A stretch of 33,666 bases of DNA from Cyanophora paradoxa CCMP329. Lineage: Eukaryota; Plantae; Glaucophyta. The notes below the pieces were generated by a model. The model was not told the origin of the DNA and did not search any database. It was given only the letters and a program-made list of their open reading frames with translations. Within the stretch, counting starts at the first letter, position 1. Each line of letters starts with the position of its first letter. This document shows, one piece after another, positions 9,501-33,666 of this stretch. The stretch lies in the NCBI GenBank assembly GCA_004431415.1, contig QPMI01000018.1:1-33666 (forward strand), written 5' to 3'. The position numbers and the translations under genes were made by a program.

Positions 9501-11100
9501 GGCGATCCGGACAACGACAGCCTCCTTCGTCAGATCCCCCACATTTACATTGGTCACGGCCCCCACGGCGCGCCTGTCGACCCGTACGAAGGCCGCACGC
9601 GCTTCACTAACATCATGAACTACATCACTACGACGAAGGCAGAGGAGTCGCGCGCGTACATTTGGGACCCGCGCCTCGACGGCAAGATCAAGCTCGTGGG
9701 CACGGACGAGTACATTCGTCGGAACCCTGGGATTGCGCGCAAGCCCTTTGTCCGACCCTTCGTCGTCTGGTCGACCGACTTCAAGGATCTGCGCACCAAC
9801 GAGCCGACGGGACTGGCACGCTTCGGTCACATCCAGGGTGTTGTCTTCAAGCCATCTGGCAGTAACAGGCCTCCGCGTCGTAGTCCTACGGGGACCGAGA
9901 CGACGGGAACCTCTGACGGCGACGACTCCAGCTCGGACAGTGGTGGCTCCACCGCCGAGTCCGTAGCTCCATCGGAGACCCCGTCGGCCGGGACGCCGAG
10001 CCTAGCCTCGCGCGTGCAGTCGTCCGCGTTCGCCCCCCACGGCCTCCTTGGACCGCTCACACGGCAGCACACGCACACGATCGCATACAACGACCTCACT
10101 AATCCCAGGACGTCGACGGATCTCACGATGGGCTGCTGGCTCCTCTACTCTGGACGGGGACCGGACTACGAGCGGATCACGTCCGCGCGACACCGTGCCT
10201 TCGAGGACCCTGAATTCGCCGCCAGTTATCACTTGTACGACTGGTCGCCGCTTCAGCGGTCTCACCAACTCAACGCCCACGCAATCCTGGAGACGCTCCA
10301 CGAGATCGAGAACTTTCGGTGGGATTTCACAACCTCTCAGGGCCTGTCAGCCGACCTCGCTTTCACTCGCGCCTTGTTCACTCGGGCGGCCTTCATCCTC
10401 AATTCAATCGGCCTCGCGGCGTGGGACGTGGTCCTCCACAATGACTTCCGTAGTCATGACGCTCAACGGACACGTTTCTACGAGCGGCACGTACTCCAAC
10501 GCGACACGCGCCTCCGCCACGCTTGGCCCCAACTCGTCAAATATCTCCGGGCGTCTCTCTCGCGCCACCGCGAAGCCATCCCGTTCCGATCCCCCGGAGA
10601 GCCTGGCTACCGGCCGGCTGAACGACGGGATGGCGCAGCGGGGACCGAAGTTGACGCGATCAACGAGATTCACTATGGCTGGCCCAGCAACCGCCACCTC
10701 AACAAGCTCGCAAACGCCGACTGCAAGCCCATCCTTGGCGTCGGATACTTTTCAGCCACAATGCGCAATAACCGGCCCCCGCTGCGTCTGTCGGCAGCTC
10801 CCTGCAGGGCACGCCCATTCGCCGCGACGGACGTCCTCATGAACGTGCACAGGCGGACAACCACGCGGAAGCGACCTCGCCTCAAGCGGACGGCACCGCT
10901 CCCGCCAGCCAGCGTCATCTCCGGTTCGACACCGTGCACACCGTATGAGCAGAGCTACCTCGCCTCGCTTCGCGTCTGCGCGGCACGCATGTTGGGATTT
11001 GACGATGTCGAGGACCCCCTTGACGTTCCCCTCTTCGGCGACGGCGGCCCGTCAGTACCACACCCCATTGCGCGAATGACGGACACGAACCGCACGCTCA
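483..11100 (+). CDS. Very long unassigned coding region between Gag NC and protease (frameshifted)
   Basis: Overlapping + ORFs 507-3341 (944 aa), 4133-4588, 4682-5104, 5032-5967, 6044-7396 (450 aa), 7381-7812, 8085-9089, 9062-9618 and 9615-11840. Junctions traced (e.g. ~465, ~3615, ~7340) join into protein-like sequence on adding one base. No family recognised. Confidence 0.7.
4605..4683 (+). repeat. 36-bp tandem duplication (TPDAQPVAPxTT x2)
   Basis: actccggacgcccagcccgttgcaccc at 4605 and 4641. Confidence 0.9.
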
Positions 11101-11119
11101 GAGAGCGCATCAACGACGG

Positions 11120-11537
11120 CCGAATCTGCGTCAACTTGCACATCGCCGCTATCGATCACCGACGACAAGTCCTTCAATACCTCCTCACCAAGGCATTGGT
11201 GGATACAGGAGCCGCTGCGGACGTACTCGACGGCAGTATCGCCGACAAACTGCCAGGCCTTCGCTACAGCAACGCTCCGCGCGTGCACCTCACCGGCTTT
11301 GGAACGGACATGACTGCCTATGCGCGCATCGCATTCATTGCAATTAAGGTTGGTCCGGTCACAATTCCGCGGAAAGTCCTCGTCGTCGCGCCTGGTCTCA
11401 TGGGCAACACTCCAATGCTACTCGGCCTCACAACGCTGGTGGCGCTCAACGCTCACATCGTGCTCGACCCAGCAAATTGGGGAATGACGATCACGTCGCC
11501 TGACTCCTCGGATGGCGAACGATTCCACGTCCCTTTT
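11120..11537 (+). CDS. Retropepsin-type aspartic protease domain
   Basis: ALVDTGAAADVL (DTG at 11202-11210), flap-like VHLTGFG, C-terminal MLLGLTTL, within ORF 9615-11840. Confidence 0.9.
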
Positions 11538-14500
11538 CGGCTGCGGGCCAGCACGACGGCGGCGTTCTGGTCCGATTGGCGAAGGACATCACTGTACGGC
11601 CGGGTGAATCGCTCGTTCGATGTTACATGCCACAAACGACTTCGAACACGACTCTCGGCGCACCGGAAGTCCTCCTCACTCCGCCACCACTCCTCCTCGA
11701 CGACGACGGCTTCGACGGAGCCGACGAAGTCGAATTCTTGGTGCCATACCAAATTCACCGCAACCCAGCACACGGCACGTTTTTCGTGCAGATCTGCAAC
11801 CCTCACAGGCGGCCTGTCCGCCTGCAAGCCGGAACTGTGATTGCGGAGACTGAATTCGGGACTTGGCCGGAGTCCGAATTCCGTCCACACGAGAATGTCG
11901 AGACCTACCCCAAGGGGTGCTACAGCTCCTGGACACCTCAACAACAACTGACATTCCCGATCTCTTCCGTAGCCGCGCAAATCTACGAGAACTTCAAGCC
12001 TGTTGTCGTACCCCGACGCTCGCAACCACGGCGCTACATCTCCCGAGCCCGACGCCTCTATCCGGAGGTCTACCACCGACGACCGCCCGAACCCAACTAC
12101 ACGGAGGGCGAGGCGGCGCATGTTGGCTCCGTCAATGCTGCTGCCGACATCCCGCTATCCCACGAGGCCAGCGAGCGTCTCATGTCGTACGTCGCACGTG
12201 TCGTCACCCCTTACACTGCTCGAACCGGTGATCACTTCAACGACAAGGAGCTCATGGAGCTGGCCAGCTTCTTCGAGCCTCACTTCGCCCGCTTCGACTC
12301 CGAGCCGATGCTGGTTGGCCCCGCAGTCGGCCCCACGGTGCCCATCGCGTCCGTCAATGCCGACGCTCGAATGGAGCCCCCGTCGAGTGACACTGCGCCT
12401 CCTACAAAGCCATCGCCCGAGACCATCAAGGCGATGGTGGACGCCCTGTTGAAACCATCGGAGTCGAACCCCGACGCCCTTCCCGAGGATCGCACTCAAC
12501 TCCAGAACCTTCTCACGCAACGCCAGCACTGCTTCGCCCAGAACATCAATCCACGCGAGCTCCTGAAGTACAAGCACAGCATCCGACTTCTGCCCGGCGT
12601 CCCCGCCAAGCACCTCCCGCTGTACACCGTTCCTCGCCGGCTCTCTCCGCCTGCGGAGAAGGCTGCGAAGGCGGAAATCGAGAAGCTGCTACGCGACGGT
12701 CTCATCGAGCCTTCGCAAGCTGGTTTCGGCAGCCCCGTGGTGCTGGCACCGAAGAAGGATGGCACGATGCGATTCTGCGTCGACTACAGGAAGCTCAATT
12801 CCCTCACGGAACGTGATGTCTTCCCGTTGCCACGCATTGAGGACCAATTGGAGCGCCTACAGGGCGCGTCCACGTTCTCGACTGGCGACGCAACGTCGGG
12901 CTTCTGGCAGTTGGAACTCGACGAGGAGTCACGTGACCTGACGACATTCATCGTCCCCTGGGGAATGTACAGGTGGAAAGTGACCCCTTTCGGTATCACG
13001 AACGGCCCAGCGGCGTTCTGCCGAGCCGTGACGTCAATTTTGGGCAACCTTTTGTCCACCTGCGTCGTGGCGTACGTCGATGACCTCACGGTCCACTCGC
13101 CGAACGTCAAACAACACCTTCTCGACTTGGAGGCCTTCTTCGCTGCGATCGACCGCGGTAACCTCAAACTCAAGCCCAGCAAATGTCGTTTCATGGTGCG
13201 GGAAGTCGAGCTGCTCGGATTCCGCGTTAGCAGCGACGGCATTCGCATGGACCCCAAGAAGGTCGAGATCATCTCCAAGATCACGGCGAACGAACTCCAG
13301 ACTGTCGAGCAACTCCGCAGTTTCCTCGGCCTCACAGGCTTCTACCGGCGCTTCGTACAGAGTTACGCGCGACGGGAACTTCCCCTGCGAGACCTCCTCA
13401 CGGACGCACTACGAGCCGACCGGCTCAACTTGGTGTGGAATGACGAGGCTCTCGCTGCGTTGGACGACCTCAAGAAGGCGATGTGCGAGGACATTGTGCT
13501 GATGCTGCCCGACTTCACGAAGCCGTTCATCATTTACACGGACTGGAGCAAACGGGCCATGGGAGCGGTGCTCATGCAGGAGGACAAGGACGGCCGCGAG
13601 CGCCCAATCGCATTCATCAGTCGTACTCTGACAAACATGGAGCGCAAGTACCAATCACCAACGGAGGGCGAATGCATTGCAGTACTCTGGGCGGTTAAGG
13701 TCTGGCACCACTACTTCGTCTGCGGCCACCCGTTCACGATCCGCACGGATCATTCGGCGTTGCAATGGTTGAAGACACAGGAGCTGGCGAACAACAAGAC
13801 GCTTGGGCGCGCGGCCATCGCCCTCAACCACTACAACTACACTATCGAGTACCGCAACGGGCGGTCGAACGTCGTTGCGGACTGCTGCTCTCGCCTTGCG
13901 GAGACGCACGCAGTGTACAAGCCTGGCGGCGCTGACGGCACTGACATCACGACTTCGATACCCGACGGCGCTCACGGGTTCGGTGTGCCCGATGCGGGAG
14001 ACTACGACGATCCACGCGAACTCTACCGCGTCGCCATCCACCGCACCTCCTCGGCCCTGCAACATACTCTGGACGGGCCGGCGTGGATCCCTACTGGGGA
14101 TAGACGCCGCGCCACCACGCGACCCGAGCACCTTGCCCCGGCGCCACCGCGCCGAGACCGCGACGACCCTCAGACTTCACGGCGACGTCCAAGGTCGTTG
14201 ACGCCCGACACTCAGCGAGTGCGTGACATCGTCGAGAACGGCGGCCTGGAAGATGTGGAGTCCCAGATCACGCTGGAACGGCTCCACGAGAACGGCGCCC
14301 TCTCTGCCCCCGACGTCGTACCCATGGAAGTTGACACGCCTGCACCGGCCGCAGCGGCAGACGAGGCGGGCGCGACGGCCCCTCCTGCACGGCGACGCCG
14401 CGGGGTGACGAACCTCGAGCATACACTCGACGGCGCGGCTTGGCTACCGGCCGAGGGTCGCCGCCGCCGACTTCAAGCTCGAGGACAGGAGAGCTCCGCT

Positions 14501-15055
14501 GACGGGCTTCAAGCTCGAGGACAGGAGAGCTCGGCCCGGAGGCCTCGGTCTCAGTCACCGGAAGGAGGGGGAGGGGGTACAGACGAGGAGAGCGAGCCGT
14601 CGCTACCCCGTCCATCTTTGCGAGGCTTCGATCGTCAAGCAGCTGACCGCACGCTACGCGACTCTGTGGAACGGGCACGACGCCGGGCCCTCACGGATGA
14701 CGGCCAATCTTCGCAGTCCTCGGCGTCCGACGGAACGTCGAACTCAAGACGGAGCACGGCTTGGAGTGTCCCGCGCCAATACCAGCGACGGCTTGAAAAG
14801 GACTACGCTGACCGCCTCGCCAGTGATCGCGACAGACGTTCGCGTGCGGCCCGAGATCTGCACGAAGCCTCGCGGGAAAGGACGGCGACGACGCTCGAAC
14901 GGCGACGCCAACTGGCAGAGATGGGCCGTACCCCGTCTGAGATCGACGCGCTCGTACCCCTGCCCTCTGTTCGGAACCGAACCCCGGAGGAGCGGCGCAG
15001 ACGGCGACAATCCCGCAAGGCGCTGAACGCCAAGGCATGCCCGTACCGCGGGTGA
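11531..15055 (+). CDS. pol: Pol: dUTPase-like region, reverse transcriptase, RNase H, long low-complexity linker
   Basis: RT motifs SPVVLAPKKDGTMRFCVDYRKLN, FPLPRIED, GFWQ, PFGITNGPA, YVDD (13073-13084), LLGF, LRSFLGLTGFYRRF. RNase H motifs YTDWS (~13535), TEGECIA, IRTDHSAL, NVVADCCSR. Confidence 0.97.
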   Translation, partial: PFSAAGQHDGGVLVRLAKDITVRPGESLVRCYMPQTTSNTTLGAPEVLLTPPPLLLDDDGFDGADEVEFLVPYQIHRNPAHGTFFVQICNPHRRPVRLQAGTVIAETEFGTWPESEFRPHENVETYPKGCYSSWTPQQQLTFPISSVAAQIYENFKPVVVPRRSQPRRYISRARRLYPEVYHRRPPEPNYTEGEAAHVGSVNAAADIPLSHEASERLMSYVARVVTPYTARTGDHFNDKELMELASFFEPHFARFDSEPMLVGPAVGPTVPIASVNADARMEPPSSDTAPPTKPSPETIKAMVDALLKPSESNPDALPEDRTQLQNLLTQRQHCFAQNINPRELLKYKHSIRLLPGVPAKHLPLYTVPRRLSPPAEKAAKAEIEKLLRDGLIEPSQAGFGSPVVLAPKKDGTMRFCVDYRKLNSLTERDVFPLPRIEDQLERLQGASTFSTGDATSGFWQLELDEESRDLTTFIVPWGMYRWKVTPFGITNGPAAFCRAVTSILGNLLSTCVVAYVDDLTVHSPNVKQHLLDLEAFFAAIDRGNLKLKPSKCRFMVREVELLGFRVSSDGIRMDPKKVEIISKITANELQTVEQLRSFLGLTGFYRRFVQSYARRELPLRDLLTDALRADRLNLVWNDEALAALDDLKKAMCEDIVLMLPDFTKPFIIYTDWSKRAMGAVLMQEDKDGRERPIAFISRTLTNMERKYQSPTEGECIAVLWAVKVWHHYFVCGHPFTIRTDHSALQWLKTQELANNKTLGRAAIALNHYNYTIEYRNGRSNVVADCCSRLAETHAVYKPGGADGTDITTSIPDGAHGFGVPDAGDYDDPRELYRVAIHRTSSALQHTLDGPAWIPTGDRRRATTRPEHLAPAPPRRDRDDPQTSRRRPRSLTPDTQRVRDIVENGGLEDVESQITLERLHENGALSAPDVVPMEVDTPAPAAAADEAGATAPPARRRRGVTNLEHTLDGAAWLPAEGRRRRLQARGQESSADGLQARGQESSARRPRSQSPEGGGGGTDEESEPSLPRPSLRGFDRQAADRTLRDSVERARRRALTDDGQSSQSSASDGTSNSRRSTAWSVPRQYQRRLEKDYADRLASDRDRRSRAARDLHEASRERTATTLERRRQLAEMGRTPSEIDALVPLPSVRNRTPEERRRRRQSRKALNAKACPYRG

Positions 15056-16881
15056 AGCCTCCCAAGGGCAAGAATTCACGGCAGTCTCGATATGCCATTG
15101 CGCCCCCGTCGCATCTCGACGTTGCTGACGAGGAAGAGTACATGCACTTCCTGCAGCAAGAACGTGACCTCGGTCGTCCGCGACCTGATCCCACTTCTAG
15201 CAGCGCTATCGCCCCGCTGGACGAAGGTGAAGGCGCCCAGAATGAGCCGACACACGTTCGCTTGCCGCGTGGCACCGTTGTCATGGACACCTGGAGCGAG
15301 GGCCCCCGCCCCCTCGTTGACGTTCCTCCGCCACCGACGATCCGTGAACTTGTTTCCGATGGGACCGCGGTCATCATGGCTCAGGCTCGTGACCCTCTTT
15401 GCCAGATGGTGTTCGCACTTCTTCGCGAGAAGGAGAACCTGGCGCGCTGTCACTCCCACTACACTGCTGGTGAACGTGACCCGGAGGTGCTTGGGAGCTG
15501 CATTCTCTGCAAGTCTGCACGCGATCGCTTCGCTCGTGAAGCTACTCAGTACACGATCGATGAGCAAGATACCGTACTGCGGTTGCCCTTGCTCCCCACT
15601 ATGCGGCCTCAGATCGTTGTACCCCCAGAGTGGCGGGAGAAGATTGTTCACGCTTACCATGATGACTGGGCTCACCGTGGTGCCCCCATTGTTGCTCGGC
15701 GCATCGCCTCACGGTTTTGGTGGCCGGGCATGACGACTGCTGTCCATCGCTACGTGAAGACGTGCCGACACTGTCAGTTTGCCAAGGCTCACAAGAAGCC
15801 GAAGTCACAATTCACTGTGATCGAGTCTGAGCATCCTGGCGACTTGCGTCAAGCCGATCACTTCCCTATGGCGCCCTCTGAGAACGGTCGACTTCACCGT
15901 TTCACACTTGTGCACATTGATGTCGACGCTTTTACCAAGTACCCTGAGATTTTGATGCTGACGGAGGCTGATGGTCGTGCCTGTGAGTGGGCTGCACAAA
16001 CTGTGTACGCGAATCACGGCCCTTGCAAGCGGTATCTCACGGATAACGCCAAGGTCTTCACGCCTACTAGTCTCTGGGGCAAATTCTGGACTCGCCAGGG
16101 TACTCGGTTGATTTACGCTCCCACGTCCCACCAGTCCACGAACGGCGGTGCTGAGCGGCTTGGTGGCATTTACAAGCGCTTGGTGTATGCTCTTTGCGAT
16201 GAGAACGGGGAGGACAATTCCCATTGGCCTTTCTATCATTATCGCGTGCTCTTCGCTCTCCGGACCACGATCCACGCTGCCACTGGTTTTTCACCCGCCG
16301 CTCTGCACTTTGGACGAGAATTGATGTTGCCTGGCGATCTTCGTCTCGACCTCACCCTGCGCGAACCTCACGAAGATCCCGTTTCTCTCTACGATTACGC
16401 TTTGTCGGTCGCTCGAGCCGCCCGCGACCAAATCTCTGCCGTCCGAGAACACCGCAAACTTTACAACAAGAAGTTGCTTCGCTATGGCACTGGCCGTGAG
16501 CCGCATCGTGTTTTCAAGCCTGGTGACAAAGTGTTGTGCTGGATTATCAGCGCGAAGACCAGTAACGTCAAGCGCACTGGGCCTCGCAATGGTTGGACTG
16601 GCCCTTACACTGTCACTGAGGTTCACTCTCACGGTCTTTTGTACACTGTCCGAGGCGATGACACTTCACTGGTGTATCGCTCGCGCGAGGTTCTCATGCA
16701 CGTTGATCTCATGATCGCTTTTCACGAGCGTCCTGCCAATGTTCTCGCTCCCCGCAAAGCCGGTCGCCCTCGCAAGGCCCCCGTGCCTGTGCCGCCCGAT
16801 CATGAGGTCCCCGTGCCTCCGCCACCTGCCGTTGATCCCGATTCACTTTCCGATGATGACACGACGGATAACGAGTCTTGA
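15037..16881 (+). CDS. Integrase (HHCC zinc domain, DD36E core, GPY motif, C-terminal AT-hook), -1 frame relative to RT-RH
   Basis: HDDWAH...CRHC; QADHF...LTDN...NGGAERL with 36 residues between the second D and E; TGFSPAALHFG; WTGPYTV; RKAGRPRK; stop TGA ending at 16881. Confidence 0.95.
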   Translation: MPVPRVKPPKGKNSRQSRYAIAPPSHLDVADEEEYMHFLQQERDLGRPRPDPTSSSAIAPLDEGEGAQNEPTHVRLPRGTVVMDTWSEGPRPLVDVPPPPTIRELVSDGTAVIMAQARDPLCQMVFALLREKENLARCHSHYTAGERDPEVLGSCILCKSARDRFAREATQYTIDEQDTVLRLPLLPTMRPQIVVPPEWREKIVHAYHDDWAHRGAPIVARRIASRFWWPGMTTAVHRYVKTCRHCQFAKAHKKPKSQFTVIESEHPGDLRQADHFPMAPSENGRLHRFTLVHIDVDAFTKYPEILMLTEADGRACEWAAQTVYANHGPCKRYLTDNAKVFTPTSLWGKFWTRQGTRLIYAPTSHQSTNGGAERLGGIYKRLVYALCDENGEDNSHWPFYHYRVLFALRTTIHAATGFSPAALHFGRELMLPGDLRLDLTLREPHEDPVSLYDYALSVARAARDQISAVREHRKLYNKKLLRYGTGREPHRVFKPGDKVLCWIISAKTSNVKRTGPRNGWTGPYTVTEVHSHGLLYTVRGDDTSLVYRSREVLMHVDLMIAFHERPANVLAPRKAGRPRKAPVPVPPDHEVPVPPPPAVDPDSLSDDDTTDNES

Positions 16882-16926
16882 ATCACGGCCCGTACACTGG
16901 GAGTCGGATTCCTATTACACCCTGGG

Positions 16927-17398
16927 TGTATGACTATTACACCGAGTCCGCGCACCTATTACACCGAGGGGTTCGCCCGGGCTGCCGCCCGACTGCACCA
17001 GGACGCGCTGATAAGGGTTAGGATCTCTCAGTTGCATGTTCACGCATCGGCCGACGGTCGGCCTTGCGTCCGGTGACTCGCTGGAGTGGTGAAAGACCAC
17101 AGCCAGCGGACGGTCTTGAGCCACGTGGCGGAGCACCGCAGGAATCGTTTCGCCTGACTAAGTAGCTTGCTTCTAGTACTGTCGACAAGCTACAGACCTC
17201 CGGCCGGATTGGCCGGGTCGGTCGGCTCGGGTGCACGGATTTGAAGTGCCGCGCTTCGGAATTGCTACGGCTGATGTGCAGAACGGTTCTAGCGAAGCTA
17301 TGGGCCTGGGCAAGCTCAAGCGGCCGTGCGCCGTGGGTCGCTCGTGGTCGGTGTGAGAAGGGTCGGAGTAATAGGAGAAGGAGTACAAAGATGTTGCA
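16927..17398 (+). repeat. Putative 3' LTR (TGTA... to TACA at 17387 or TGCA at 17398)
   Basis: Non-coding segment 45 bp after the integrase stop that begins TGTA and reaches a CA end near a composition change. No 5' LTR is in the window to confirm it. Alternative: the purine tract at 17371-17391 is the PPT and the LTR starts TGTTGCA at 17392. Confidence 0.35.
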
Positions 17399-17399
17399 A

Positions 17400-18480
17400 A
17401 CTGAACTTTTTTTGCGGCTTCGAACCCTGGGATACGCCGGCGGGCCACTAGTACTGGGGATCGTCGGGGCTTCAACGCTGAATCCACTGCGTGGCTTCGA
17501 CGGGATCTTCAGGTGCGCGGCGGCCGCGCTCGCGGATGCACACCTTTCAAACTCTTGTTGACAGCAGCAAGGCGAGGATATCATCATGTCATATTCCGCA
17601 AGCTTGAAGGCGACGAGATCATCATGAAGAGTTGCGGCGCGCAGAAGGGGTGGCGCGCACCCGTTGCCGCGCGCGAGCGTCTCCCCCGGTTCGAGGTGCG
17701 TCCCCTCATCCACCTGCCACGCCTTGAATGTCGGTTCTTCTGAAAGATCTGACGCCAAAGATCTCATGGTTCGGGGAGGGCAGGCGCTGATGGGCTGCTC
17801 GGCCTTCCTCGGCCTTCCTCGAGGACGGGTTGATCGAGATTTGAAGACGGGCCCTCGGAGTGCGTGTTGATGAAGCAAGCAGATCCTCACTACGTCACAC
17901 TACGGTCTTCCACTTCTTTCACTTCTTCTGGATACGGAGGCCCCTTTTCAGACCCCTTTCCAGAGGCGATTGTTAAATGTCAATGGTGCAAAGAGCTCAG
18001 CAAGCTTCAGCTCTACGTAAGCATCTCGAGCTCAGCTCAAGGTCAGCAATGGCTGAAGCTCATGATCATGTTGGAGAAAAATCGACATCAGTGGTGCGAA
18101 ATTTCTGTAGTATAAGCTCGACCTTGAATTTGAGTATACGTACAAGAGTTTAACGAAAGGGACTTCCAGGTACTGCAACCGCTGCCGTCGTTGGGAGTTC
18201 GAGTTGTACATACTCAACAAAAAACACGAGCTCTACAGCTCCGTCCTCTTCAATTGCTTTGGTGATTCGTTCGTTGACGAAATTCCGTCGACGTACGCGT
18301 CGCGCGGGCGTCCCTTGCAGCGGTTCAGCAAAACGATGTGCACCGGCATTGCCTCTTCTTGGATTGATTTCTTCAATCGGTGCGTCCTTTTGAATATCCG
18401 CGGCGGCAGGCGAGGGCACCTTGTCCTTCTTGCCCGCTGCAGGTCGCCGAGGGCCCTACGTCCAAGTCACCGAGGGGGGT
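17400..18480 (-). pseudogene. Degenerate coding sequence with an AT-hook-like motif
   Basis: Protein-like fragments in shifting minus frames (18150-18419, 18032-18220, 17018-17890), including RPRGRPRK near 17805-17830, with several stops. Confidence 0.3.
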
Positions 18481-18942
18481 GAGGGCGCGAGGCTCGTTCG
18501 GGAGGCCTTAGAGGGCGAACCTGGCCGGCCGGGTGCGTTCATCCGTATCTACTTATCAATATCAAGCTGAAAAGTCGATTAACTGCGCAGCCCCGTTCGT
18601 GCAGGACGGGAGCCTGGCGCTGTCGGCGCACTTCAGAAACGATCGTCGACGTCGGCGCAGTTATTCGAAGAGGTCATGGTCTGCAACTCGCCTTGACTTG
18701 CTGCCGTTTCCGGGAGCTCGCGTTCACTTCCTCGACGACACGATCATCGACGTGAAAATCGGCATGGTCGATTCCGGCATGCATGTGAGGACGAAGGACG
18801 GCGGAGGCCAACGGCTACTCGTGCCAAGCGGCCTCGAGGCTGGTGCAGGACTCCGAAAAGCTAAAGGAGGTCTTTATCGAGCTGCACGGCCCTCCACATG
18901 ACATTGTGCGACCTCGAGCTCTTCGCCGTTTTACTCGATGTC

Positions 18943-19000
18943 GCGATCTAGATGTCGCGATCGTTCCGGAGAGCGATCTAGATGTCGCAATCGTTCCGGA
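18943..19000 (+). repeat. 30-bp direct tandem duplication
   Basis: gcgatctagatgtcgc(g/a)atcgttccgga at 18943 and 18973. Confidence 0.85.
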
Positions 19001-19207
19001 TCCGGCGTCAGCATAATCAGGGCGACCAATTAGAGCGGCGGCGGCGACGGCGCGGCTGCAGGGCGACGGCGGCGGCGTAGTTTCCCTATGGTAGATAGAG
19101 GTAAATGTAGCTTGTGTTTCTGGTAGTTCGGGTGTAGAAATTGCAAAGTGCTGTTTTTCACCACCGGAGCCAATAGACCTCTGCCACGCTTGATATTTAT
19201 ATTTGTC

Positions 19208-20000
19208 GAAAGCACCCTAAAGCGGGGCAGAGGCTCGTCTGGCCTTCCATTCTCGAAGGCGAGGTCCGATGCCCCACTGGGCCAGGCCACCCAGTGACCG
19301 TCATTTCCGGGGAAGAGTGCCGGGCGAACATTTATCTTTCTTTTTCTGTTATTCAAGATGCTAATCATGTTCGAAAGCACCCTAGAGCGGAGCAGAGGCT
19401 CGTCTGGCCTCCCATTCTCGAGGACGAGGTCCGATGCCCCACCCAGTGACCGAGCCATCATTTCCGGGGAGGAGTGCCGGGCGAACATTTATCTTTCTTT
19501 TTCTGTTAGTCAAGATGCTAATCATGTTCGAAAGCACCCTAGAGCGGAGCAGAGGCTCGTCTGGCCTTCCATTCTCGAGGACGAGGTCCGATGCCCCACC
19601 CAGTGACCGAGCCATCATTTCCGGGGAGGAGTGCCGGGCGAACATTTATCTTTCTTTTTCTGTTAGTCCAGATGCTAATCATGTTCGAAAGCACCCTAGA
19701 GCGGAGCAGAGGCTCGTCTGGCCTTCCATTCTCGAGGACGAGGTCCGATGCCCCACCCAGTGACCGAGCCATCATTTCCGGGGAGGAGTGCCGGGCGAAC
19801 ATTTATCTTTCTTTTTCTGTTAGTCCAGATGCTAATCATGTTCGAAAGCACCCTAGAGCGGAGCAGAGGCTCGTCTGGCCTTCCATTCTCGAGGACGAGG
19901 TCCGATGCCCGACCCAGTGACCGAGCCATCATTTCCGGGGAGGAGTGCCGGGCGAACATTTATCTTTCTTTTTCTGTTAGTCAAGATGCAAGTCATGTTT
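19208..20000 (+). repeat. 157-bp tandem array, 5 units, each an imperfect ~122-nt palindrome plus AT-rich linker
   Basis: gaaagcaccct starts at 19208, 19373, 19530, 19687 and 19844; units 2-5 are near identical. Confidence 0.97.
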
Positions 20001-20176
20001 GATGTTTATTTTGTTCGTAATCAACCTTGAATGACTACGTGATACAGCCTCCCGATGTTGCGTGATTGTTCAGCACCCTTCGTCATCACTGCGTTTTGTG
20101 AATCAAAAGAATGAAAATGAAATGATGAATGGTCTCGCCCTGAGATGTTGAAAATGTCCGCAAACGAGAGACCTTT

Positions 20177-21262
20177 TCAAATAAAAAGAAATGCATGAAA
20201 ACCCACATTGATGCCAAAACGTAAGCAAGACGGACCGGACGGCGCGGTACCAGGATCGTTTTCAACGAACACCTTTTTATACTCCTCCGCCATCGTGTCC
20301 ATGAACTTGCGCTCATCATCATCACCTTCCAAATCTTCGCAATGTTTCCAGTCGGAGACAGCACGCTCCGGCCTGAAGTCGACCTCTCGTGCGACAGACT
20401 CCATGAAAAACAAGACCCAAGGACCACAGTGGCTAGCGGCATCGGATCCGTGCTTGTCTTGAAGGACATTGTTTCGAATCTCGATCTTGTCTGTTTCGTC
20501 GACGATTGTAAAATCACGGAAAGCATCCACAAGCAACGTCTCCAATGCGTTTTCAATCGGGTCTTGCAGCGAGTCAAACCAGCGAATCCGCCTTGAACGG
20601 AAGTCGAAGACGAGAAGACACCAGTGTTGCCAGGCTGTGGATGCGTACAAGCCTTTCCAGACTACAATCGGCAAGAAACATAGCTTCCACTTTCCACCGA
20701 TGTTGTCAATGACACTGCGGCTGATTGCAGGGTCTCGATTTGCGAGCGCTTCCATTATCGAAAGCGCATCATCGATAGAGAGCGCCCATAGAAGAGCGAC
20801 GTCCCCGTGCGCAATCAAATCCTTCAAAAGATGGGCTGCAGCGAAGTCCAAATGGCAGTCCTAACCAAGACGAAAGTTCAATGCAGCCAAAAAGAAGCAT
20901 TGCCGCAAATATTTTGCTGCCCGCACCGTATAACAAGAATTGGAACCTTCCGGGAGTCCGTCGTGCGGAAACTCATCCACAAAGCGTTTGGAGTATATGG
21001 TGCCAAATGGAGCCCGATCTCGCTGGCGGTTTGGAGTATATTGAACCAACTGGAGCCCGAAAGGACAACGATTGGCAGGTCCCCGCGCTCCAGTCTGCTC
21101 ATCTAGGCAACGAATACACAACCTGCGCGCGGATCGCAGTCACAAAGAGCTGCGTACGCGGTCAACCTGGCGGGCGAACCCTTCGTCACATCTCTCGCAT
21201 TTCAGCACCGCAGCGTTCGAATTCGTGACGCCGCAGACGGAGCAAGACACCTCTGGAGTTCG
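20177..21262 (-). CDS. Ulp1/SENP-family (peptidase C48) protease with N-terminal PHD/ADD-like Cys-rich zinc finger; start exon unresolved
   Basis: Catalytic motifs QHWCLLVFD (His 20624-26), WFDSL (Asp 20573-75), LQD and SHCGPWVL (Cys 20426-28). Exons 21262-21180, 21122-20927 and 20860-20177 join in frame via GT-AG introns of 57 and 66 nt, each containing an in-frame stop. The product reads CSVC-x11-CERC-x4-CIRC...CPF, then CYTDCHLDF. Confidence 0.85.
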
Positions 21263-21627
21263 CTGCGCGTGCACGGGAGAAGCGCGTTAGGGAGAAGAGC
21301 ACGGGAGAAGCGCGTTAGGGAGTTGTGCAGACCGCGCAATCTCGGAATGTGTGCTGTTGTGCATGCTGCATCTGTTGATAAGGACGACCCGTACGCGTTG
21401 AAGTCGACAGTGATTAGGGGGGTACACACTGAAACCGATTTGAAAGCCGGCAGCGACGGTAGAAACCGTAGAAAGCCGGCAGCGCGTAGGATCGTGTAGA
21501 GTAACTAAGACTTACTTCCAATGCAGCTCCGCGATCGGGCGAAGCGAAAGTGAGCGTGCTGCTGCCTCTAGATCTGTTCCTCTATCTCTTGTGCCAAAAA
21601 CGCTGAACAACGCTCACGTGCACGCTC

Positions 21628-21672
21628 GGGGGGCGCGGAAACTCGGGGGGTGGGGGTGGGGGGCGGGGGGGG
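21628..21672 (+). other. G-quadruplex-forming tract
   Basis: Five G-runs of 5-8 nt; the last four are separated by single bases. Confidence 0.7.
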
Positions 21673-21713
21673 TCAGACTAGTCCCAGCCTCGCTTTAGAG
21701 TGCTTTTGACATT

Positions 21714-23417
21714 TACAATATATATATATAGCTGTTCATCAAGGTAGAAAGCACCATTAACCGGGGCAGGGGCTCGGCTTGCCTCAATGCCCCACCCAGC
21801 GACCGAGCCATCATTTCTGAGAAGAGTGCGGGGCGAACGTTTTTCTTCCATTTTCGATTAGTCGTACATCAATGTAGAAAGCACCCTAAACCGGGGCAGG
21901 GGCTCGGCTGGCCTTCCATTTTCGCGGACGAAGTTGACACTTTCGAGTTGAAATTCGGAAGAAACTGATGGCTGGCTGGCAGAGCTTGACCTCCTTGCGC
22001 AAGTCCCCGTCAAGGGCGGCCCATCGCTCGGAGATGATAAGGGCAATAGCTTTGTGTGTCTGCCGAGTGAGCTTTCCCTCGCCGATGTAGAAGCCAACGC
22101 AGTCTTACAATATATATATAGCTGTTCATCAAGGTAGAAAGCACCATTAACCGGGGCAGGGGCTCGGCTTGCCTCAATGCCCCCCCCAGCGACCGAGCCA
22201 TCATTTCTGAGAAGAGTGCGGGCGAACGTTTTTCTTCCATTTTCGATTAGTCGTACATCAATGTAGAAAGCACCCTAAACCGGGGCAGGGGCTCGGCTGG
22301 CCTTCCATTTTCGCGGACGAAGTTGACACTTTCGAGTTGAAATTCGGAAGAAACTGATGGCTGGCTGGCAGAGCTTGACCTCCTTGCGCAAGTCCCCGTC
22401 AAGGGCGGCCCATCGCTCGGAGATGATAAGGGCAATAGCTTTGTGTGTCTGCCGAGTGAGCTTTCCCTCGCCGATGTAGAAGCCAACGCAGTTTTACAAT
22501 ATATATATAGCTGTTCATCAAGGTAGAAAGCACCATTAACCGGGGCAGGGGCTCGGCTTGCCTCAATGCCCCCCCCAGCGACCGAGCCATCATTTCTGAG
22601 AAGAGTGCGGGGCGAACGTTTTTCTTCCATTTTCGATTAGTCGTACATCAATGTAGAAAGCACCCTAAACCGGGGCAGGGGCTCGGCTGGCCTTCCATTT
22701 TCGCGGACGAAGTTGACACTTTCGAGTTGAAATTCGGAAGAAACTGATGGCTGGCTGGCAGAGCTTGACCTCCTTGCGCAAGTCCCCGTCAAGGGCGGCC
22801 CATCGCTCGGAGATGATAAGGGCAATAGCTTTGTGTGTCTGCCGAGTGAGCTTTCCCTCGCCGATGTAGAAGCCAACGCAGTCTTACAATATATATATAG
22901 CTGTTCATCAAGGTAGAAAGCACCATTAACCGGGGCAGGGGCTCGGCTTGCCTCAATGCTCCACCCAGCGACCGAGCCATCATTTCCGAGAAGAGTGCGG
23001 GGCGCTCGTTTATCGTCCTTTTTCTAAAAGTCGTGATGGCTATCATATTCGCGGAGCAGAGGCTTGGTTGCCCTTCCATTTTCTAGGAAGACGGCCGATG
23101 CCCCCCCCAGCGACCGAGCCATCATTTCTGAGAAGAGTGCGGGGCGAACGTTTTTCTTCCATTTTCTATTAGTCGTACATCAATGTAGAAAGCACCCTAA
23201 ACCGGGGCAGGGGCTCGGCTGGCCTTCCATTTTCGCGGACGAAGTTGACGCTTTCGAGTTGAAATTCGGAAGAAACTGATGGCTGGCTGGCAGAGCTTGA
23301 CCTCCTTGCGCAAGTCCCCGTCAAGGGCGGCCCATCGCTCGGAGATGATAAGGGCAATAGCTTTGTGTGTCTGCCGAGTGAGCTTTCCCTCGCCGATGTA
23401 GAAGCCAACGCAGTCTT
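21714..23417 (+). repeat. ~390-bp tandem array, 4 units: diverged hairpin repeat plus ~190 bp of the LRR gene last exon
   Basis: tacaatatatatatag starts at 21714, 22106, 22495 and 22885; the last unit has an extra hairpin copy. It shares gaaagcacc, ggctcg, gaccgagccatcatttc and gagtgc with the 157-bp unit. Confidence 0.97.
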
Positions 23418-24103
23418 GCGCCGTTTGAAGGGCCTTAAAAAACGCCACGCCAGCCGCGTTCGTCAACTGTGACATACCCAATCAACGTACCTGTGACATA
23501 ATCACCACATGATCAACGTTAACGTACCTTGTCATTCTCGCCAACATTTACACCACGGATACAGAGCCCCGGAATTCCGAGAATCGGCAGGATGTACGCC
23601 TCAAACGAAGCGTCGTCCAAGCCCCAGCCGTGGCAGCGAAGAGCGCGCAATTGGCAGAGCTTACTGGCTTGCTTCGTGATGACCGCGAGCAGGCGCTGGA
23701 GCTAGAAGTATGTAGAGGTCAGCAAGGAGAAGCGCCGCGCAAGCTTGCATATGCATGCGCTGGCGTGCCTGATGCTCGGGAATGTCGGTTTTGTGACCAA
23801 GCAGCTGGATGGAGTCAAGTCCTTCTAGATCGTGCTCGGAAGCGATGCGATCGATCAGCTTGTCGAGCTCTTTGTTCGCACGCCAATCATTCCACTTCCC
23901 ACTCGAGCTGTGCAGATCGGCGAGGCTCAGGTCGTTGCTTTTCAGCAGCGCCAGCAGCGACGCCGTGCGCTCTGCAAGGCGATTCAAATTCAAAGCGCGG
24001 CAACTGCAGGCGCACAGTGCCACGCACCACGTCCCCACGATGATGTCCGCGTGACAAGATTCGGTTGCCACTGCGGCCGGTAGGCGGGCTCGTCGACGTC
24101 CAT
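23197..24103 (-). CDS. Leucine-rich-repeat (RNI-like) protein, 4 exons, 240 aa
   Basis: Exons 24103-24028, 23971-23769, 23701-23528 and 23466-23197 total 723 nt and splice in phase (GT-AG, GC-AG, GT-AG). Product contains LRALRCHGWGLDDAS, IRGVNVGENDKLTNAAG and VGFYIGEGKLT. Confidence 0.7.
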
Positions 24104-24176
24104 GCGGACGGTCTGTAAAGTACGGTACCCCAACAGCACAGACGGAGTCTGACGGACTTGTACGGTGCAGCTCTCA

Positions 24177-26163
24177 ATGCAGCTCTGCGCTCGAGCGAAG
24201 CGAAAGAACGAGCGCGCTTCAGCTAGCACTTCGTCCGATGACGGGAGAGACTTCTTCGCAATGCTCCCCGACGATCTTGTCGTGCGCATATTTAGCCACG
24301 TGGAAGCTATGGAGGCATACGATACGTGTCAGCTCTGGCGCTTGAATCGGCGCCTTGGCCGTCTCGTCCGAGACGTGCTGTGGGAACGGCTGCAAATTGA
24401 CGTAGACATCTTGTGCGAGCGTACCGCGCCCGCCGCGGAGAGCAAATTGTCTTCTTTTTATAGCACAAACGCAGCGCCGTGGCGTGCACGTCCGCACGCG
24501 AGCGCGGTTTCGGACGAACAGCGGATCGTAAAAGCCCTTTCCCGGCAGCACAATCGAATAGTGGCACTCGTGGAGACCCGAATGTTTGCTGGATGTAGGC
24601 GGCTCGAGATATATGACGTTCTGGGCTCAGCCGTCATGAACGTTAATCCTCGGTGGTGTCCGTGTATAATGGCAGAGTCTGCCGCAGAGTCGTATGTTCG
24701 CCTCATACAGAGTGCGTCACGAGCGCAATCAATTCATCTCCGTTGCCTGACCGTTGAATGGCAGAAATTATTTCAGCTTTGACGAAGCCCCCCGCAAGCG
24801 GCCCTGAGGAATTGTTCTTCGGTGCAGGCCTCCTAGGATATTGCGGGCAAACTGAATTCCCCCGAGAGTTTGGAGTTGCAATCGATTTCCTGTCGTCGGT
24901 CACCAGTTCTCCCGTCCGTACGTTACGGGTCGGCTCAGAACGTCTTTTGCAAGATATCGTGGATGCAGCTGTTCCAGGCTGCGTTCCCACTCTGGAGGAT
25001 ATCAGCGCTGTGATTCCTCCGGAATTGCATGGAATAGAAATTGCGAATTTCATGGATGCCGCTCTTACCGTGAGCATTATTATAATCGAAAAATGATAAT
25101 GCTCAGATGCAGTCTAATTTCAGAATGCGCAGGAGAAAATGGCACGTTTGTGGCCAGCGCTGCAGCGGCTTCACAGCGGGTTTCGTGGAGGGGAATCCCT
25201 GCTAGCACTACTGCCGCTCCCCTTGACGGACTTAAAAGCGACCATTTGTGGAGCACACAACGCTGCTGAGGCGCAATCCGTTGATAAGGCGCTCGAGGCT
25301 CTTAAGCCCAGTATTTTGAAGTCACTGAGATTCGCTTGCAACACGTATGATGAAATCGTTCTCGGAGCAGCAAGCCCACGTACGATTGCTTCTATTCTTC
25401 GTTTTTTGAATCTTTCAGAGTTGGATATTACGGTCCGTTTGCTGCGAGAAGTATTTGATTTGCGAGATGCTTACTCCTCTCAGGTTTCCGAGAACTCCGG
25501 TTTTGGTTTGGCGGAGCTGGGCGCACTTACAAGACTTCGGAGTATGAGACTCACGTGCGAGTTTAACGTGCGTAATGGTTGTTGCTGGGCAGTTTTTTGG
25601 AAGATTCTTGACGTACACCGCGATCACAGACCGCTTTGGATTCGAATTCTGGAGCGGGTGTTCTCCGATCCGCTACTACGGGGTTTAGATCGAGTTCATC
25701 TCTCAAGTCCTGGAGATCGTAATGAGGATATCCATGCATACGCGCGACGACCACATAATATCAACAACTCTTGAAGACGTCATCCTCGCGTCGCAGCAGT
25801 TTTTAACAAAGCTAACGACGGTCAACGTTCCGCCGTGGTACCTGCAGGTATGTTTTACTTGGTGCTGATCTCGACTGGCGATTTCACAACGTGTTGCACG
25901 CGCAGGCAGCCGTTTCATCTCCGAAACTCGAATCTCTAAGTGTCAAATACCCATGGCAAGACGGGACATTGGCACGCCTTTCTGCACTCTCGGCGTTGCG
26001 GGGGATTTCGAAAGAAAGAGCAAGACAGTTTGAGGTCTCTTTGGTCGTGTCCAAGGAGCTTGTGGAGTCAGCGCGTCGTGCTGTGTCACCCTGGGTTGAA
26101 GGGCGTTTTACCGTAAGCGTTGGCGACTATCCTAGCACGCTGTTAATTCAATATCTCGCATAA
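24177..26163 (+). CDS. F-box protein with LRR-like C-terminal region, 5 exons, ~580 aa, one apparent -1 frameshift near 25705
   Basis: F-box motif FAMLPDDLVVRIFSHV...LWRLNRRLGRLV. Phase-consistent introns at 24712-24776, 25070-25123 (or 25132), 25568-25629 and 25848-25905. LRR-like segments NLSELDI, ALTRLRSMRL and PKLESLSV. Confidence 0.8.
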
Positions 26164-26437
26164 TTTCAATATCTCTCATGAGAAAGACGCTCTTCCCGTG
26201 CACTTCCTTAGTTCCCGGAATGAAAGCTTGGTCGCGGGCACTGAAAGCTTGGCAGGGGTTGCTCATGCAGTTGGCGACTATCTAGGACGCTGTAAATTCA
26301 TATCTCTCACGCGAAAGAGGCTCGAGAATGGTCCGTCTTGCTTACGTTTTGGCATCAATGTGGATATTCATGCATTTCTTTGTATTTCAAAGGTTTCTCG
26401 TTTGCGGACATTTTTAACATCTCAAGGCGAGATCTCC

Positions 26438-27036
26438 TCCTCGAGAATGGAAGGCCAGACGAGCCTCTGCTCCGCTCTAGGTGCTTTCAAACATGATAAG
26501 CATCTTGACTAACAGAAAAAGAAAGATAAATGTTCGCCGGCACTCCTCCCCGGAAATGATGGCTCGGTCACTGGGTGGGGCATCGGACCTCGTCCTCGAG
26601 AATGGAAGGCCAGACGAGCCTCTGCTCCGCTCTAGGGTGCTTTCGAACATGATTAGCATCTTGACTAACAGAAAAAGAAAGATAATGTTCGCCCGGCACT
26701 CCTCCCGGAAATGATGGCTCGGTCACTGGGTGGGGCATCGGACCTCGTCCTCGAGAATGGAAGGCCAGACGAGCCTCTGCTCCGCTCTAGGGTGCTTTCG
26801 AACATGATTAGCATCTTGACTAACAGAAAAGAAAGATAAATGTTCGCCCGGCACTCTTCCCCGGAAATGATGGCTCGGTCACTGGGTCGGGCATCGGACC
26901 TCGTCCTCGAGAATGGAAGGCCAGACGAGCCTCTGCTCCGCTCTAGGGTGCTTTCGAACATGATTAGCATCTTGACTAACAGAAAAAGAAAGATAAATGT
27001 TCGCCCGGCACTCTTCCCGGAAATGATGGCTCGGTC
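26438..27036 (-). repeat. Inverted copy of the 157-bp array, ~3.8 units (further partial copy 27155-27190)
   Basis: Reverse complement of the 19373-20000 units with scattered 1-nt deletions. Confidence 0.97.
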
Positions 27037-27264
27037 GCAGAATTCGAAGTCTATTTCCACCCTCAAATAATGGTGGTGGTCGCAGATGCTGGCTCCGGTC
27101 GAGAAAAACAGCACTTTGCAATTTCTACACCACATTCTAGAAAGCCCTGCCCCGCCGTTCGCCCCGCACTCTTCTCGGAAATGATGGCTCAATTCAATTG
27201 AATTCAAAAGTGTACGTCAGATGTCCCATTTGCTTCACATCTTTACTGGCCTGCTCCTCTTTCA

Positions 27265-28087
27265 GGCGCTTGGAAATGTCCTAAAGAACTCGATGTCGCA
27301 GTTGCTGAGGCGGAGTCCGCAGATGTCGCGAAGCGCTTTATCCACGGACGGATGAAGAGGATCGCGAACGCGGAAACCACCAGAACAGAGCTGAAACATG
27401 CGCAGCGGCTCTTCGCCACTTGAAAGCCTTCGAGGGTGACCATACAGATGTGCTCCCAGAGTCCCCTGCGCTCATGATCACTGGCTATGTGAAAGCAGAA
27501 TTTCTCGGGTAAATTAAAACAGAAGGCCATGCGCACTGTTCAGGTCCAGAGGCCCCTCCCCTCCGACGGCAGAGATTCAATCAGGGTGGTGCAGTAATTC
27601 GTGTCCTCACCTTCTCCTTCGAGATCGCTGTCCTCGCCCGATTGGGGAGGATGTCGAAGGCCCGCGACTGCCGGTGGAGCTTGGCGATCCGAAGCGCCAA
27701 ATTAGCGAAGGGCCGAACGTCCATAGGGATTTCGTCCAAAGTGCTGGCACTCTCGATAGCCAGGATGATGGCGCATATGCACAGTGGGGCTGACGGGTTC
27801 TCGACACAGGTACGACACGGAAGCTCCTTTGGCCGCTCTTCTGCTGCTTCGTCATCGCTGAGAGCTCTTGCGTCGTTCTTGGCGGCTGCAGCCCGCTCCT
27901 CAGCCTTCCGCAGACGTCGATAGATCTCCGCAACCGCTTCCGCTGACGCTTGCCTCTCGAGCTGCCGCCGCGTCGCCTCATCCACGCTGACGTTTTCGGC
28001 TGTGCGCTCCTCGCGCGCGCGCTTCTGCGCACGCGCCGGGCCGCTTTCCTCTGGTTCGAGCGCGCGTTTCTCCTCGCCGCTCTCCAT
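27265..28087 (-). CDS. Hypothetical protein with charged/coiled-coil N-terminus and CxxC...CxC motif; 3' exon structure unresolved
   Basis: ATG at 28087 opens ~160 codons (MESGEEKRALEP...PCRTCVENPSAPLCIC). Candidate donors at ~27610 and ~27536; protein-like frame downstream to ~27265. Confidence 0.5.
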
Positions 28088-28769
28088 TCTCAACGTATGT
28101 CAACACACGTGTCGCTGCGGATTCGGAGGAGGTCGATTTCTTTGTGCAAGGTTGCAGGGGTACGCTACCTGCAGGGGTACGCTACTCACAATTTGAAGAC
28201 TCCTACAAGCATGAGCTCTGAAGAGCAGGCCAGCATGCCCTTGACTAGACCATGGGAAGGCTCTTTTAACATGGTGGATGTACAGTGCAAACTGTTTTCA
28301 TTGCATGCGTATCGGAATTCCGACTTCGATGCGCACGTTCGTAACCTTGGCATGATTGTGTCACCTTACTTGTGCTGACATTTGAATTTCAGCCAGATGC
28401 TTGCAAAAACTCCAATCTAAACTATTTCCGCTCGTACGACACATCAAGTGCTTCAGGTGTAGTTCCATCCGAGTCGAACATTTTTGTGCGGTTTTTCTGC
28501 AGTCGAACTGCAGTGCGAACTGCGGCGAATAACACATCTGTCCATGACAGATTGTTTTCAAAGGCGAGGGAAGTGTCCGCCTTCACGGAAATGTAACCTT
28601 TTATTTCAAGGATCCTGATTCTGACCCGTATACATGGAGAGGGAACGCAAGGTAAGGAAACTCGTGATTGCGTTTTTCGTTCTTACCCGCACACTCGCAG
28701 CTGGAAACCACACATCCTTTCTCAAGGATCCGCACTGGATGTAGCCGTCCCTGGTTTTACGATGTTTAA

Positions 28770-31700: not shown

Positions 31701-32440
31701 ATTCTGAGACTGGACACCTGCAACGTTTAAAACGAAGAAACGTCATTCTCGGCTGTCAACTTGCAGCTGCTGAAGTGGGTGGCCGGGAGTGGTATATGCT
31801 TGCATTGCTGAAGTGTGGCGACAAGAGAAGCATTCTCAGACTGAACCTGCACGATGTTCAGACAAAAGAAAAGGCTTCGGTTGGTGATCTTGCCTTGCAG
31901 CCGGGCGATCAAGGAAGCATTCTCAGTTTGGACGCCTGGCAATCTTTTTAAAAAAAGCGAAATAATACTCGGAAAAATCTATTCACCCTCCATCTGGTCT
32001 TTTGAGTGTCGCAGAAGTTCGTTCTCATCTTCAAGTAATTTATTCCGATTACGCATGTTTTGAACCTCCGCCCGAAGCGAGGAAATCTCATGATCTGATG
32101 AAGAACCTGCATAAGATGGTTATTAATCAACACGTTGCGCGTTTTAAGACGGCTCTTTGCGCTCACTAGGGTTCATGTGACTGCGTCCATAGGTCGAGGC
32201 CCATTCCGACTGGAGAGTTGATGCATTTTGTGGTCGGACAAACGAAATGGGAGGTGTCGATGTTTCAATTGCTTCCGAAATGGGAGTTGTCGATGTTTGA
32301 ATTGCTTCCGGTTTGTTAAGGTGCAGCGCAAAGCGTGTGTCCTGCAGTTTTTTGAATGCTCATGCATGCAAAAACGAATCCAGCTCACCTCCTTCTCACA
32401 GAAATCGAGTATGAACCGCCTGCTCTCCTCCGGATACTGT
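28770..32440 (-). pseudogene. Decayed multi-exon gene(s) with coiled-coil repeats and tandem SUMO/ubiquitin-like domains
   Basis: Two homologous segments 29772-29545 and 30263-30046 read VSLKI...FYMLSTETFGSAVERAC...GMEL...LRASETPSNVGL...LTLL and VTLNI...MLPNETFASAVKRAC...GMELWW...SETPADVGLTD. Three VQ(T/S)(E/Q)NA...AxLQ repeats at 31675-31940. Multiple stops and frameshifts. Confidence 0.55.
30279..30657 (+). repeat. Diverged ~130-138 bp tandem repeat, ~2.8 copies
   Basis: gtggcgcactcttc...gaaggtttaaaa.aggc.tcaacacgtc recurs at ~30314, ~30451 and ~30587. Confidence 0.9.
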
Positions 32441-32481
32441 AAACGTTGTGATGAAAGAAGGGAGTTTGAACGAATAACGAA

Positions 32482-33111: not shown

Positions 33112-33666
33112 ACCGTTTTATGTGTGTCGCAAGGCACGGCACACATCTCCAAGTGCGTCGCGGTCGGTCAACAGCCATTGTGTGCGCATCACTGCAGGAG
33201 ACACTTCTCTTCGAACGCCCGCTTGAGCTCGGCGATGCAAGGCGCTAAAACTTTCGGTCGAGGTTTCGACCTGCGTATGCATCCAAAAGGTTGGATGCAA
33301 GTTACAGCAGTTCGCAAGTTGCGTTCTACATCGCGCGCACCTTTTGCGATCCGAGACCGCTTCGACCGCCCTCTCGCTCCACAAGTTGCGAGCGGCGAGC
33401 CGAATGGAGGGGTACACTGCAGTTCTCGAAACCAGGTCGAAGGCATGGGCGGCAAAGAGACTCATAAACGCAAATCGACCGGCTGTCAAGGAGATGCCCG
33501 TGCCGATCTTCGGGGCCGACGCAGAACCGGCGTGGACGATCCTTCCAAGGTACGCCGGCCCGTGCGGCCGTATGCGCAAATGCGTGCACCGATAAGCACC
33601 AGGGAAGCACCGGAGATGCAGGGACGAATCAGGAATCAGAGCGTGCGGAGATCCTCCAACTTGCTC

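Follow-up and report, generated by a model that had tools for sequence, protein, structure and literature searches.

The window, which is the whole stretch of 33,666 nucleotides analysed here, is occupied from 1 to 16881 (forward strand) by an unusually long retroelement region of the Ty3/gypsy type, in which a zinc knuckle at the window start is followed by a protease, RT-RNase H and an integrase zinc finger. Between the zinc knuckle and the protease, about 10 kb consists of long open frames (958 aa, 525 aa and part of one of 798 aa) that match no family. The GC content is lower downstream of 16881, and three tandem arrays are located in that lower-GC part. The genes and their apparent introns point to a eukaryote. 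A decayed transposase was considered for 17018-18900 on the reverse strand (AT-hook match, E 0.0065) and rejected, as read-through gave no family and the coding score was poor. The stretch 29552-30655 contains dispersed direct repeats of 130-260 bp that have diverged (74-79% identity) and bear no relation to the 157-bp unit of the arrays. A short likeness to the centre of that unit at 17795-17830, missed by both the profile and the covariance model, is probably due to chance. The arrays and the reading frames around them are the following.

18512..18901, forward: outer-left open frame; coding-like, no family match, stop 302 bp from A0
19131..19172, forward: left copy of the outer 42-bp inverted repeat, 95% identical to 27090-27131
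19206..20002, forward: left array, 157-bp period; a diverged copy (A0) and four near-identical copies, with a 35-bp AT-rich spacer after each
19367..19488, forward: unit copy A1, an imperfect inverted repeat (5' arm X of about 46 nt, centre of about 28 nt, 3' arm Y of about 48 nt)
20133..20236, forward: left copy of the inner 104-bp inverted repeat, 92% identical to 26330-26432, with the last codons and stop of Ulp1
20177..20860, reverse: Ulp1 (Peptidase_C48) frame; Pfam E 8e-6, Atlas 0.95 to Peptidase_C48 clusters
21519..21560, forward: relic of an F-box start, 84% identical over 44 nt to 24175-24218; divergent from Ulp1
21671..21718, reverse: lone inverted arm X, 77% identical over 48 nt to 19197-19244
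21713..23417, forward: middle array, 390-bp period, made up of a shortened unit (B), a single arm X (C) and 172 bp of neighbouring unique DNA
23033..23151, forward: older full unit D, inside the middle array
23661..24173, reverse: frame originally called LRR; coding-like, no Pfam family match
24153..26163, forward: F-box gene in several open frames; Pfam F-box-like E 2e-4, under the curated cut-off
26330..26432, reverse: right copy of the inner 104-bp inverted repeat, behind the F-box gene
26431..27036, reverse: right array, 156-bp period; three full units and partial arms, an inverted copy of the left array
27090..27131, reverse: right copy of the outer 42-bp inverted repeat
27157..27193, reverse: partial arm Y of type B, the farthest remnant of the unit
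27262..28099, reverse: outer-right gene candidate; two coding-like frames, no homologue, stop 72 bp from the partial arm

The repeat is a 157-base unit with weakly self-complementary halves, arranged in three local arrays. Profile and covariance-model searches found 13 full or nearly full units and eight partial arms, all within 19202-27193, and the covariance model gave no further copy above noise in the window outside 19202-27279. Right and left arrays are 97% identical over 605 bases, with 153-157 of 157 bases identical between units. Including the 42-bp and 104-bp repeats, the full mirror-image arms extend over 19131-20236 and 27131-26330 and enclose an 8-kb segment with the Ulp1 and F-box genes. 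An 11-bp direct repeat, itself part of the unit, flanks the right 104-bp copy (26321-26449), as a templated repair insertion would leave. In the middle array, the 172 bp of unique flank inside the 390-bp period are the mark of plain tandem duplication.

The Ulp1 segment is closed by the lone inverted arm X, whose local alignment score of 50 was reached by none of 2000 shuffles. It adjoins the spacer at the place where arm Y normally stands, and GAGTGC and ACATTTA are common to it and the end of Y. This spacer context and the two common motifs suggest that Y might be an older, more decayed copy of X; in direct local alignment the homology of X and Y is not significant (214 of 2000 shuffles were as good) and the X profile misses Y. 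TGT-type starts are found at A0 (TGTCG at 19204), on the inverted arm (TGTCA) and also in C, and the amplified A unit starts with TGTTC.

The relic of an F-box start beside Ulp1 indicates that the two inner segments have a common layout and some common history. Upstream of Ulp1 (21100-21260, reverse), a PHD-like cysteine pattern was seen by eye, with no Pfam match. To score coding potential, a three-periodic model was trained on the Ulp1 and F-box frames (776 codons); it favours stop-free frames. Held-out true frames scored between -0.057 and +0.058 and their other frames between -0.13 and -0.26. With the 95th percentile of the null at -0.039, the outer-right (+0.018), outer-left (-0.011) and 23661-24173 frames (-0.035) all score as coding-like, as does a minus-strand frame at 18153-18455 (-0.023). 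The label LRR, given to the 23661-24173 frame in the original prediction, was not confirmed, as no Pfam match accompanies its coding score. Protein searches at E 0.001 returned no relative of the Ulp1 frame or the outer-right frame and, among longer proteins, none of the first F-box frame.

It was borne out that Ulp1, the frame at 23661-24173 and the F-box gene approach the unit on one and the same strand of it. This strand is the reverse complement of the unit as written, so that the term sense orientation was misapplied to these three inner frames. Nor do the genes run into the repeat, as had been stated: the distance from their stop codons to the array edge is 175, 244 and 268 bases, and that to the closest full unit 218, 510 and 367 bases. 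The outer-left and outer-right frames are likewise directed at the arrays, but on the written strand, which contradicts the claim that the unit lies 3' of each gene of the island in one orientation. The arrays apparently occupy the space between 3' ends that converge on them, with no fixed sense. Moreover, Ulp1 and the F-box gene do not count as independent cases, because the arms are one inverted duplication; this single event explains the orientation of the unit.

Twenty of the 24 listed sequencing runs contain 80-84% of the words of the region, and none of them is registered as an RNA run. For 18800-19366, contigs of three DNA runs were compared at 80% likeness, and for 22880-26432 those of two runs. 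The contigs of two runs carry a single extra base at each of 25708, 26218, 26281, 26299 and 26329. These five added bases likely mark single-base assembly errors in the window, the first of them in the F-box gene, so that one break of the F-box frame (25708) is likely an assembly error. Some of the differences between repeat copies are likely of the same kind. The first comparison listed 22 of 31 loose contig ends and the second eight; each of the listed ends that falls inside the unit continues into window sequence, while those listed outside it, from the 18800-19366 comparison, are in the flank. Among the listed contigs, the passage from the left flank into A0 had no alternative neighbour and the left flank no second insertion site, and for 22880-26432 no joints, hence none indicating excision, were listed in the contigs of two runs.

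Read depth in run X5 was 335 in the left flank, 362 in A0, 364 in the F-box segment, 381 at the right end and 427 in D, and rose to 1413 in C and 2257 at the A-A junction. Relative to the left flank, these are ratios of depth (not of copy number) of 1.08-1.28 for the unique parts, 4.2 for C and 6.7 for the A-A junction; the corresponding ratios in run X10 were 1.08-1.12, 3.9 and 4.6. The X5 ratios are near the unit counts inside the window. No near-identical dispersed family was seen, in a comparison that copies near 80% identity or below would escape. A paralogous contig of 5.7 kb was present at about one third of the island depth in two runs (106 versus 335 and 40 versus 113), and the island with its left flank may occur about three times in identical form. 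In two runs the flank contig starts at about 17782. The stretch 17782-27190 may have been duplicated recently into several copies, or may belong to a larger element. Pattern scans gave no match in viral contigs and none in prokaryote genomes; two matches in metagenome contigs, both in the same unrelated context of 40% GC with no wider similarity, were set aside as chance. Nothing in three presumed RNA contig sets aligned to the unit or the inner genes, which provides no evidence on expression.

The five nested pairings originally described in A1 are all present (19367/19482, 19377/19474, 19388/19463, 19397/19451 and 19404/19443), and the minimum free energy (MFE) structure of the plus strand is indeed the rod (-45.5 kcal/mol). 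Its stability, by contrast, is not above chance, with z -1.19 and 25 of 200 shuffles as good. On the reverse strand, z is -0.39 (66 of 200 shuffles) and only the two outer stems are retained; the rod is not the preferred fold of this strand, which the inner genes would transcribe. When only the duplex of arms X and Y of type A is considered, z reaches -3.96 on the plus strand, with 0 of 500 shuffles as good at the chosen register, and -3.66 on the minus strand; 0 of 172 background windows reached z -3. With all registers scanned, 2 and 6 of 150 shuffles were as good on the plus strand and 3 and 35 of 150 on the minus strand. The nested-stem score of the rod, designed after the rod had been seen, was 25 against 13.1 ± 3.4 (3 of 1000 shuffles). 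The imperfect inverted repeat of type A is real, if modest, and its near-equal Watson-Crick pairing on both strands fits an inverted repeat of DNA. The unit has no hammerhead core, pol III B box, AATAAA or attC box motifs, and gave no Rfam match at E up to 10 and no tRNA. An Rfam scan of the window gave two matches, both by chance and both outside the arrays.

The 390-bp array was said to keep the inner stems. This applies to GGCTCGG/CCGAGCC, which is found in the B unit, but the halves of GCTGG/CCAGC come from two different sub-units, GCTGG from the C half-unit and CCAGC from the B unit, where the 5' arm has GCTTG instead. The variants have also lost pairing. B units break three of the seven outer and one of the four inner pairs, D is without stem 2, and A0 has indels in Y. 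The rod scores of A0, B1, B4 and D do not exceed those of shuffled sequences (257, 282, 228 and 134 of 300 shuffles as good). In terms of MFE on the plus strand, B is at z +0.07 to +0.49, D at -1.73 (7 of 150 shuffles) and C at -2.14 (3 of 150); on the minus strand B-type units fold worse than shuffles (z +1.08 to +1.31). The register of type A is nevertheless the best duplex in A0, B and D, though a weak one (z -0.6 to -2.3).

Covariation was scored on an alignment of 11 of the 13 units, with two near-identical copies omitted; as seven of the 11 are of type A, it comprises about four types and has low power. On these 11 copies of about four types, the covariation score was 0.074, compared to 0.072 ± 0.005 for shuffles, 158 of 500 of which reached it, and RNAalifold found 0 of 19 pairs compensatory in the aligned copies. 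Of 25 pairs, one has changed on both sides; it belongs to the outer stem, which is broken at another place in the same copy. All substitutions in stems 3 and 4 (columns 28/113, 30/111, 35/106 and 40/100) are compatible with G-U pairing on the written strand; four such changes have a chance of about 1 in 16 if they are independent transitions. Along with the folding of D and C above shuffles on the written strand, they hint that the pairing may not be purely decaying.

The original prediction named a structured 3' RNA element first, and these results do not support it. In the form weighed here, transcripts running into the arrays would fold into the rod or form double-stranded RNA, thereby ending transcription or feeding small-RNA silencing. 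Frames that point at the arrays from both sides, the G-U-compatible changes of the middle stems on the written strand, and arms that could pair over hundreds of bases if transcribed through are what such a role would draw on. It is nonetheless improbable in view of the missing covariation and of an Rfam search with nothing above chance, of a rod that is not the best fold on the inner-gene strand, where B units do worse than shuffles, and of the non-uniform orientation of the unit, which as far as seen is confined to one locus and so cannot be a general 3'-end signal.

The best explanation, with a probability only slightly above one half (about 0.52), is that the unit is a decayed pair of transposon-type terminal repeats, the inside of which was deleted, and that it was amplified locally into foldback-like arms. 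Arms X and Y would descend from one terminal repeat of about 45 bp. A short pair of such repeats would have lost its inside, which would leave an empty X-Y unit, and this unit, along with its spacer, may have been multiplied in place through slippage or unequal exchange. By template switching or gene conversion involving both ends, an inverted copy of the array and of the 104 bp next to it could then have been made, a step that would have set the orientation of the inner genes relative to the unit. The hairpin would be a decaying remnant of the similarity of the arms. A terminal-repeat origin is supported by the inverted arms, by the inverted X bracketing Ulp1 and by TGTC at both ends, and decay by the loss of stem pairs in the variant units, with the rod scores of A0, B1, B4 and D at shuffle level. 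The original alternative of a transposon terminus amplified in tandem is partly supported in the form of a terminal inverted repeat (inverted arms, inverted half-unit, TGT-type ends), but neither as a dispersed MITE nor as the 3' end of a Helitron. In appearance the structure is that of terminal repeats of the foldback type, although it now seems to be fixed in place.

No target-site duplication (TSD) was found at any of the five candidate end pairs, and matches of 4-5 bp at three of them need uneven shifts of the ends. For this reason ATTTA was rejected as the TSD of the pair formed by A0 and the inverted arm. A transposase family was not found in the 21 read-through frames of 16900-33666. 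These absences, and that of dispersed near-identical copies, are what would be expected of a plain local satellite, in which a weakly palindromic stretch of 157 bp, of chance origin and situated in a segment rich in young genes, was amplified and then inverted by template switching in repair. The register-corrected pairing, which only 2-6 of 150 shuffles match, and the microhomology and patchwork junctions (the 11-bp direct repeat, and the 390-bp unit with 172 bp of flank) would also suit such an origin. It does not, however, explain why an inverted arm takes the place of Y or why that arm, A0 and C have TGT-type starts, and is considered unlikely, if a serious candidate.

A Helitron-like terminus, or a central tandem repeat produced by read-through replication with Ulp1 and F-box captured, is very improbable. 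Helitron-like elements (HLEs) do capture Ulp1 and F-box-associated domains, and those of the HLE2 group have short inverted repeats and insert between T and T (PMC11417382); central repeats of Helitrons give rise to satellites (PMC9659126). At the locus studied here, the ends at A0 and the inverted arm lie in T-rich DNA. The amplified unit, on the other hand, has on neither strand a perfect hairpin (stem of at least 6) followed by CTRR, the one match being in A0 only, and no Rep or helicase (RepHel) family is present in the scanned frames. Subterminal repeats of 12-16 nt, a 3' stem-loop, T/T insertion and a RepHel partner characterize HLE2 in the available text of PMC11417382, and long mirror-image arms are not among the HLE features described there.

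Bacterial integron attC sites are imperfect inverted repeats of about 120 nt near the 3' ends of genes. By analogy, the unit might be a cassette site, with a single-stranded DNA hairpin at which a recombinase joins divergent gene pairs (Ulp1, F-box) into an array; empty sites would be amplified between the cassettes, and the whole island would be there in about three copies. As a whole, this proposal is hardly credible. Both inner segments do read arm, reverse frame, forward F-box start and inverted arm; empty X-Y units alternate with filled ones, with similar spacers between; and in length, imperfect symmetry and position near gene 3' ends the unit resembles attC. Against this stand the absence of the consensus R''/R' boxes of attC on both strands, the lack of a recombinase family in the scanned frames and of excision joints listed for 22880-26432, and junctions that are ragged. 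The filled segments, moreover, are only two and have sequence in common, so that they are not independent. The eukaryotic context, the tandem empty copies and the occurrence in both orientations set the locus further apart from attC.

Ulp1 domains occur in ordinary host genes too. Among transposons, Ulp1 is carried by Ginger1 and Mutator elements, and Ginger1 elements have terminal repeats of 40-270 bp that start with TGTNR, and Ulp1 as cargo with or without a PHD (PMC2836005). Like them, the locus has arms of about 45 bp with TGTCG and TGTCA (77% over 48 nt) that bracket a Ulp1 frame. Unlike them, it has no 4-bp TSD at CCGG or CCGT, its flanks are AT-rich, and the amplified A unit starts with TGTTC. 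The Gypsy-like integrase of Ginger1, which is fused to Ulp1 or OTU, was sought between the arms (20000-21720): Peptidase_C48 was the only family in the three minus frames, and nothing resembling the integrase was seen by eye in the plus frames.

Satellites derived from terminal inverted repeats (Xstir, miDNA4 and Tetris TIR-220) consist of tandem monomers that resemble such repeats (PMC9659126). Unlike these and MITEs, about 13 full units are gathered here at one locus as far as seen, and a parent element was not found; many dispersed near-identical copies with TSD, as in MITEs, were not present in the listed contigs. In tests for a Foldback/Mutator-like element, long terminal inverted repeats with internal tandem repeats were present, and a TSD of 8-10 bp was absent at all five end pairs. 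Since the defining features failed, the locus is not filed as a member of Mutator, Ginger, MITE or Helitron; as a known kind, it is a local satellite derived from an inverted repeat. A literature search for Ulp1, F-box, tandem repeats, terminal inverted repeats and transposon in combination found no paper joining them, and returned analogues only. The biology is that of ordinary repeats, and the locus at most illustrates, on a small scale, the way in which foldback-like arms around genes of the ubiquitin/SUMO pathway can grow from a short inverted repeat. It would matter more if the arrays bring about silencing or termination of the genes they enclose or, far less probably, the joining of cassettes.

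For the preferred reading of a decayed, locally amplified pair of terminal repeats, the closest comparison is with Galileo and Tm1. According to PMC3573991, the terminal repeats of Galileo grow by two to three internal copies of a 210-bp unit and also by recruiting neighbouring sequence in inverted orientation; Tm1 defines a foldback type with 9-bp TSDs (PMC3169594). The locus differs from both in that no TSD, transposase or second insertion site was found, that a third array lies inside and that the sub-repeat is itself an imperfect inverted repeat. It resembles both in its long inverted arms of about 0.8-1.1 kb with tandem sub-repeats in unequal number, and in the copying of internal neighbouring sequence, inverted, to the other end (PMC3573991, PMC3169594).
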